Notes under the pieces: model-generated | Databases searched by the model: none | Told to the model about the DNA's origin: nothing | Seen by the model: the letters and a program-made list of their open reading frames with translations, nothing else | Part shown: in pieces, positions 896 to 917 of the stretch | Layout: every line of letters begins with the position of its first letter | Numbering within the stretch: the first letter of the stretch is position 1 | IMG/VR virus record: IMGVR_UViG_2778261354_000004 | Strand: one strand, 5' to 3' | Source: a virus | Lineage: Duplodnaviria > Heunggongvirae > Uroviricota > Caudoviricetes | Length of the DNA: 6,682 nt | Made by a program: the position numbers and the translations under genes

Positions 896-917
896 CCCGC
901 CGCTGGCGGGTTTTTTT
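896..917 (+). terminator. intrinsic-terminator-like hairpin (CCCGCC-GCT-GGCGGG) followed by T7
   Basis: Seen directly: 6-bp all-GC stem 896-901/905-910 with a 3-nt loop, then TTTTTTT at 911-917, in the 60-nt gap between the terminator-like gene and the major tail gene. It is oriented for the + strand transcript. Confidence 0.5.

Follow-up and report, generated by a model that had tools for sequence, protein, structure and literature searches.

The hairpin that precedes the major tail protein (MTP) gene in the window (the whole stretch of 6,682 nucleotides that was analysed) is an ordinary, conserved feature of antiterminated phage late operons, and it is already annotated in HK97. The element (895-922, plus strand) has the make-up of a textbook-like intrinsic transcription terminator, at which unmodified RNA polymerase would be expected to stop. 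Its position is deeply conserved while its sequence changes, which is a modest new point about a kind of element that was already known. On balance, we think it probable that the hairpin works as a terminator within the single late operon of a lambdoid, HK97-like phage and is read through by polymerase modified by the phage Q protein.

The window covers the neck-to-tail part of a late operon, and all of its genes lie on the plus strand:

84-533, plus strand: HK97-gp10-like gene
530-874, plus strand: tail completion (tail terminator) protein gene, Pfam Tail_completion_gp17, gp17/DUF3168 family
935-1639, plus strand: major tail (tube) protein (MTP) gene, with a C-terminal Ig-like domain
1639-2025, plus strand: G tail chaperone gene
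2037-2327, plus strand: T tail chaperone gene
2336-2359, plus strand: sister terminator-like hairpin AACCGC-TTCG-GCGGTT (2336-2351) followed by T8, in the gap between the T chaperone and tape-measure genes
2368-5601, plus strand: tape-measure gene
Elsewhere in the window among the late-operon genes, plus strand: M-like and L-like minor tail genes

The tail completion protein is 52% identical to the tail-terminator protein that HK97 encodes at 6326-6673. The gene downstream of the hairpin had been taken for that of the major tail protein from the sequence alone, and its product is indeed 72% identical to gp12, the major tail subunit of HK97; its Pfam matches to tail-tube families fall below the cut-off. 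The neck genes upstream of the hairpin overlap each other, whereas a gap of its own and a strong Shine-Dalgarno sequence precede the MTP gene. The window has two true intergenic gaps, as the original prediction had it, at 875-934 (60 nt) and at 2328-2367.

The slot between the T chaperone and tape-measure genes is an insertion hotspot in relatives, and the sister hairpin at 2336 occupies the position of the gp15 moron of HK97. In a Leclercia prophage (L004, 4470-4850) the slot holds the gene of a 107-aa zinc-ribbon protein followed by a hairpin identical to the one at 2336 in the window. Other relatives carry 0.3-1.7 kb of extra DNA in this slot (1-1.7 kb in two of them). Besides that of L004, the regions recorded for this slot are:

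L207, 8203-8422: slot between the T chaperone and tape-measure genes
L003, about 4400-6079: the same slot
L006, about 4090-5100: the same slot
L211, 3003-3287: the same slot

The chaperone genes themselves carry a canonical G/GT programmed -1 frameshift site at 2014-2025, where an A8 run supplies the slippery heptamer A_AAA_AAG (2016-2022), directly followed by the stop codon of G (2023-2025). T (2037-2327) is read in the -1 frame of G.

The first gap contains the hairpin under study, a perfect 7-bp stem (ACCCGCC/GGCGGGT) with six G-C pairs and the loop GCT, at 895-911 on the plus strand. Its parts, and the signals that follow it, are:

895-901, plus strand: 5' arm, from A895 to C901
902-904, plus strand: loop, G902-C903-T904
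905-911, plus strand: 3' arm, from G905 to T911
911-922, plus strand: T-tract, made of T7 (911-917), A918 and T4 (919-922), a U-tract in the RNA
924-928, plus strand: Shine-Dalgarno sequence AGGAG of the MTP gene
935-937, plus strand: ATG of the MTP gene

The hairpin with its T7, placed at 896-917 in the original prediction, is real and had been located to within one base, the stem starting at 895. T911, the first T of the run, is able to pair with A895. The upstream gene ends with a stop codon at 872-874; the hairpin begins about 20 nt further on, in non-coding DNA and co-oriented with the genes. The T-tract leads straight into the ribosome-binding site of the MTP gene, with 23 nt between the end of the hairpin and the ATG. 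On the minus strand, GGGTAAAATC comes after the stem, which is no T-run, and the element is therefore unidirectional.

In a consensus scan of the window the hairpin ranked top among the terminator-like sites (7 pairs, 6 of them G-C, loop of 3). It was the sole match on either strand when we imposed strict criteria (a perfect stem of at least 6 bp with at least 5 G-C pairs, a loop of 3-6, and at least 6 T in the next 8 bases), for which 500 dinucleotide shuffles gave a mean of 0.014 matches per window. The hairpin folded alone had an energy of -12.0 kcal/mol, and the whole 66-nt gap segment one of -18.7 kcal/mol with a modest z-score (-1.9). The G+C-rich stem, the short loop, the U-tract on one strand and the placement after a stop codon are together those of a Rho-independent (intrinsic) terminator, for which a stem of about 5-14 bp and a loop of 3-8 nt are expected. 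We searched Rfam with the whole window and with positions 780-1000, and nothing reached the gathering threshold. The best match was to isrK, an Hfq-binding small RNA, with 21 bits against a threshold of 50. We rejected this and the other weak matches below threshold (Trp leader, isrD, OmrA-B) as generic matches to terminators; the sub-threshold scores of isrK and of the trp leader come mainly from a terminator hairpin and its U-tail. Our naming of the element as an intrinsic terminator follows from the agreement with every one of these sequence features and from this scoring through terminator modules. The loose version of the terminator scan also picked up a 10-pair, A/T-rich inverted repeat at positions 1-24 (GTGTCCATTA-AAAA-TGATGGACAT, then TATTTTT), within the end of the head-closure gene, which is probably a chance match.

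The element is retained across a broad range of relatives. We scored the 184 loci in which the MTP homologue aligned from residue 1 and enough upstream sequence was present (the Leclercia locus L004 was added to these by hand). All 184 had a perfect G+C-rich hairpin followed by a T-run, with the end of the stem 18-25 nt before the ATG. The pattern is the same in the Leclercia prophage, HK97, an Stx-type phage (JLK-2012), ECP1, and Klebsiella, Morganella and Burkholderia phages, and the gap that contains the hairpin was 53-72 nt long in the relatives that we measured. Every relative examined in which this gap is present has an orthologous hairpin in it. The MTPs of Stx phages have 84% protein identity to that of the window. 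In the E. coli clade the core of the stem is invariant save for a few singletons. Among near-identical E. coli prophage copies the T-run is T6, T7 or T8 (window 911-917 compared with L026-L105), and the closing base pair is weakened in a few singleton copies (L038, L070 and L072). One Pseudomonas phage, PARCL1pr, has a 6-nt gap before its MTP gene and no hairpin there. Outside the E. coli clade the arms of the stem change from lineage to lineage:

Klebsiella type: ACCGCC / GGCGGT
Phytobacter (L002): AACCCGGC / GCCGGGTT
L106: AACCCGAC / GTCGGGTT, a double, pair-preserving change from G-C to A-T relative to L002
Symbiopectobacterium (L003): ACCCGC / GCGGGT
Leclercia (L004): GCCGCC / GGCGGC
Morganella phage (58% MTP identity): AAGCTGC / GCAGCTT
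ECP1 (50% MTP identity): AGACCGC / GCGGTCT
Burkholderia phage vB_PR1 (about 40% MTP identity): GGCCCGC / GCGGGCC

Thirteen distinct 5' arms were present among 16 lineage representatives. Pairing was assessed with loop-anchored pair tables and a cross-lineage control: it was 100% between the arms of the same hairpin and 69% when arms were swapped between lineages. The spacer that separates the stop codon from the hairpin could not be aligned between lineages. A binomial figure computed for '15 of 16 lineages' was discarded, since lineages of shared ancestry give no valid probability. The changing arms, the pairing kept between them and the unalignable spacer indicate that the structure and the U-tract are conserved, not the sequence. 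Alignment of 14 lineage representatives with MAFFT followed by RNAalifold gave no consensus structure, the arms being aligned by sequence and the stems shifted; a fixed 30-nt-window alignment of the hairpins also left the stems off by one column. The original prediction had held that the placement of the hairpin reflects function rather than chance, and this gains support from the conservation in 184 of 184 loci and from the shuffles. It had also proposed a comparison with related prophages, in which the hairpin proves to be conserved and not located at a mosaic breakpoint.

The DNA of the window comes from the tail region of a lambdoid, HK97-like prophage of E. coli. Positions 500-1700 matched 901 of the 5,426 complete E. 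coli genomes, every time in the chromosome. In strain EC32 this segment has 100% identity to the window and is part of a lambdoid prophage adjoining ydfK/ydfJ, with a Q-family antiterminator, lysis genes, an HK97-type head and lambda-like tail genes. Isolated or induced phages such as phi467, Evi and vB_EcoS-689R5 are 96-99% identical to the window over positions 78-6682. The Q gene of EC32 lies outside the window (L001 7216-8037; PF03589, 183.7 bits). Some 80 nt past it there is a terminator-like hairpin (L001 8118-8137), followed by tRNA genes, the lysis genes and the structural genes.

Terminator-like sites are a regular feature of this operon. Eight of the nine strong plus-strand sites in the EC32 late region fall in intergenic gaps: just after Q, in the region before the lysis genes, and in the MCP/adaptor, gp17/MTP (the counterpart of the hairpin at 895-911), T/TMP, I/J, J/lom and lom/stf gaps. 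HK97 and ECP1 have similar gap hairpins, and in each of them the annotation places an antitermination protein at the position of Q. A consensus scan found no sigma-70-like promoter between the hairpin and the MTP gene or near 875-934. The same scan, which is blind to weak or non-sigma-70 promoters, returned 5 sigma-70-like sites in the window where 5.0 were expected.

These observations suggest how the tail-tube gene could be transcribed across the hairpin. Polymerase that carries Q is known to disregard the terminators further along, throughout the late operon. In the lytic cycle, the Q protein of the phage would modify RNA polymerase at the late promoter and make it terminator-resistant; the enzyme would pass the hairpin at 895-911 and the similar gap hairpins, and transcribe the tail-tube gene. 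Polymerase without Q, engaged in basal or spurious transcription in the lysogen or started away from the late promoter, would be released at the hairpin, and tail genes would then be expressed through the Q pathway only. In the long late mRNA the hairpin would fold all the same, and there it might in addition act as a barrier to 3'-exonucleases or as a processing boundary. We infer the read-through from the presence of the Q gene, the lack of a sigma-70-like promoter before the tube gene in the scan, the presence of the element in the viable phages HK97 and phi467, and the known terminator resistance of Q-loaded polymerase. The selective benefit is the weakest step of the scheme; we favour that it would be the barrier to polymerase without Q, to which the hairpin may add a secondary role in the RNA.

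The original prediction had considered a terminator at this place counter-intuitive, which it is not: terminators inside the late operon are known in lambdoid phages (HK97 record; bioRxiv 10.1101/2020.10.05.325894). It had offered three options, i.e., read-through under antitermination, a 3' stem stabilising the upstream message, and a module boundary made by recombination. Read-through appears to fit best of the three, and the recombination boundary is unsupported. Our search of the literature found no Term-seq, 3'-end mapping or mutational study of the hairpin or of the HK97 late-operon terminators.

Several points weigh against Q-dependent read-through as the whole explanation. First, a pure fail-safe role does not explain why the gap has been retained from enterobacterial to Burkholderia phages. 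Second, lambda is also Q-dependent and does without an element before its tube gene, where the gap is of 7 nt. Third, similar hairpins with U-tracts are found some 20 nt in front of the major capsid gene in both lambda and vB_PR1, which hints at a role tied to highly expressed genes and not to insulation. The Burkholderia phage vB_PR1 keeps the hairpin before its MTP gene and has no Pfam-recognisable Q; read-through of the Q type may consequently not hold across the whole family. At the Q-like position of this phage, the end of the early-right gene block, there is a gene for a 215-aa hypothetical protein (L217 46494-47138).

Among the alternatives to termination with Q read-through, a role in the stability or processing of the long late mRNA is possible but unlikely. 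RNase E would cut the A/U-rich tract next to the hairpin and the hairpin would stop 3'-exonucleases. The hairpin would also mark the boundary between the low-copy neck segment and the high-copy tube segment and, with the next hairpin, delimit a discrete, differentially stable MTP(-G-T) mRNA. Intercistronic hairpins set the differential stability of segments in other polycistronic operons, e.g., papBA. The arrangement in the window is compatible with this, since hairpins bracket the unit of the MTP and chaperone genes (895 and 2336) and a U/A-rich single-stranded tract lies just 3' of the first; in HK97 and ECP1 there are hairpins immediately before and after the MTP gene. Yet a 3' hairpin shields the segment upstream of it, whose proteins are needed in only about 6-12 copies per virion, so that the gain is hard to see. 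Moreover, the T-run is strictly kept right after the stem in every lineage, which is what a terminator needs and not what an exonuclease barrier needs.

A broader version of this idea, which we consider doubtful, is that the hairpin is a dedicated, lineage-conserved post-transcriptional element, i.e., a processing or stability boundary and/or a standby/S1 platform. It would uncouple the abundant tube protein from the low-copy neck genes, with the same device in use before the capsid genes of lambda (D/E) and vB_PR1. In one variant, a 3' fragment of the neck mRNA, left by termination or processing, would be an Hfq-binding small RNA. In the available part of Tree et al. 2014, the prophage small RNAs sit near pR' and not in the tail region.

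We regard it as improbable that the hairpin serves primarily as an aid to translation. It would insulate the MTP ribosome-binding site from the structure of the upstream coding sequence and from the weakly translated, overlapping neck genes, with the U-rich tract as an S1 or standby platform. U-rich leaders are S1-dependent enhancers, and several traits of the locus go in this direction: the stem always ends 18-25 nt before the ATG, the U/A-rich tract runs into GGAG, the MTP gene differs from the overlapping neck genes in having its own gap and a strong Shine-Dalgarno sequence, and analogous hairpins with U7 lie about 20 nt before lambda gene E and the major capsid gene of vB_PR1. However, the same geometry recurs at genes whose products are of low abundance (at 2336-2367, ahead of the tape-measure gene, and in the I/J gaps); it thus probably reflects a minimal gap size and not the level of expression. 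Lambda V and the Pseudomonas relative, furthermore, lack the element.

Still less credible is a partial attenuator, in which Q-modified polymerase would terminate at a low rate at each gap hairpin and produce a gradient falling from head to tail-tube to tail-tip and fibre genes. Terminator-like hairpins do occur in nearly every gap of the late operon, and partial termination is one of the two roles proposed for those of phage L (bioRxiv 10.1101/2020.10.05.325894). An attenuator before the tube gene would nevertheless cut the MTP mRNA relative to that of the upstream neck genes, which are needed in far fewer copies. The ratios of the lambda late proteins are also said, after work by Sampson et al. 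in 1988, to be set mainly at translation initiation.

Finally, it is very improbable that the hairpin is a module boundary made by recombination, a moron remnant or a chance occurrence: terminators do flank morons in HK97-like phages and the sister hairpin at 2336 is in a real moron slot, but the gap at 875-934 (60 nt) has neither an ORF nor a promoter, which led us to reject the moron reading, in all the relatives checked, as far as the Burkholderia phages, a tail-completion homologue adjoins the MTP gene, both flanks have 90-100% nucleotide identity in the E. coli clade, and chance is excluded by the shuffles and by the conservation with altered stems. The recombination boundary suggested in the original prediction was rejected as well, as the relatedness of the flanks is not discordant among relatives; by sequence comparison, the upstream tail-completion gene diverges faster than the MTP gene and there is no joint at the hairpin. 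The megablast edges at window positions 78 and 1675 were considered as joints and discarded, being limits of sensitivity. The variable points nearby are two, the T/TMP gap and the junction of the tube and Ig-like domains inside the MTP gene. The latter is the clearest mosaic joint of this region. The Ig-like domain (window about 1380-1636, residues about 150-234) is swapped or missing in some relatives: the tube proteins of the Morganella phage, ECP1 and the Burkholderia phages have about 155 aa, and the match of L006 stops at residue 140.

That HK97-like phages from those of E. coli to those of Burkholderia retain the hairpin while its stem changes argues that seemingly 'pointless' terminators of late operons are under selection. 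The hairpin, or its HK97 orthologue, is a handy test case for telling a barrier to Q-less polymerase from graded attenuation and from a function at the RNA level.

The comparison with other phages places the element within its lineage. In SPP1, the source of the name of the gp17 family, there is no terminator between genes 17 and 17.1, and one comes after 17.1*. This pattern implies that the position in front of the MTP gene characterises the HK97-like lineage and is not universal. The Q / tR' system of lambda supplies the mechanism of read-through that we assume for the hairpin, and the matching prophage of EC32 has a Q of the PF03589 family. The hairpin lies about 12 kb downstream of the post-Q hairpin of EC32, and is not the regulated tR' itself. 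Lambda differs in having a 7-nt gap between U and V, with no hairpin before the tail-tube gene V. It does have a hairpin with T7 in the D/E gap (NC_001416, 6101-6121), some 20 nt ahead of the ATG of gene E, which encodes the major capsid protein and likewise lies within a Q-dependent late operon, but the gene pair is a different one and the sequence is not homologous to that of the window hairpin. The major capsid gene of vB_PR1 also has a terminator-like hairpin with T7 (L217 129-146) some 20 nt ahead of its ATG. Hairpins with U-tracts directly before very abundant structural genes may be a recurring arrangement.

The late operon of phage L has a single promoter dependent on Q/gp23 and predicted Rho-independent terminators in its interior (bioRxiv 10.1101/2020.10.05.325894). 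According to its authors, intra-operon terminators also occur outside phage L and have no established role; they propose either partial termination or the halting of spurious transcription that is not antiterminated (bioRxiv 10.1101/2020.10.05.325894). Phage L is a P22-like podovirus and its terminator ends the procapsid module, whereas that of the window precedes the tail-tube gene. Terminators associated with morons, such as that of HK97 gp15, are likewise G+C-rich hairpins with a T-run in a gap of the tail operon. They differ from the hairpin at 895-911, which has no associated gene or promoter and whose slot has no insertion in any locus examined.

The closest counterpart is in HK97 itself. 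In its record (NC_002167), positions 6692-6719, which lie between the genes of the tail terminator and of gp12, are marked as a regulatory feature, 'terminator, putative', with the sequence AACCCGCC-AGAT-GGCGGGTT followed by TTCTTTTT. This feature has long stood in the public annotation of the type phage. More putative terminators are given in this record around the portal/protease junction; others follow the capsid gene, gene 12 and the gp15 moron (the last of them just before the tape-measure gene) or precede I and J. The HK97 terminator annotation reportedly stems from Juhala et al. 2000. The two elements share the slot and the orientation, a G+C-rich stem (8 bp in HK97) and a T-tract that runs into the ribosome-binding site. 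They differ in stem and loop (AACCCGCC-AGAT-GGCGGGTT in HK97, ACCCGCC-GCT-GGCGGGT in the window) and in the T-tract, which is interrupted in HK97 (TTTTCTTTTT) and is T7-A-T4 in the window. HK97 also has a hairpin directly after gene 12, where the window has none. Judged by the same gap, the homologous flanks, the same strand and the hairpin with its T-tract, the hairpin at 895-911 is the orthologue of the putative terminator of HK97. The site should be annotated as an intra-operon intrinsic terminator orthologous to that of HK97, and neither as the boundary of a module nor as an operon end.
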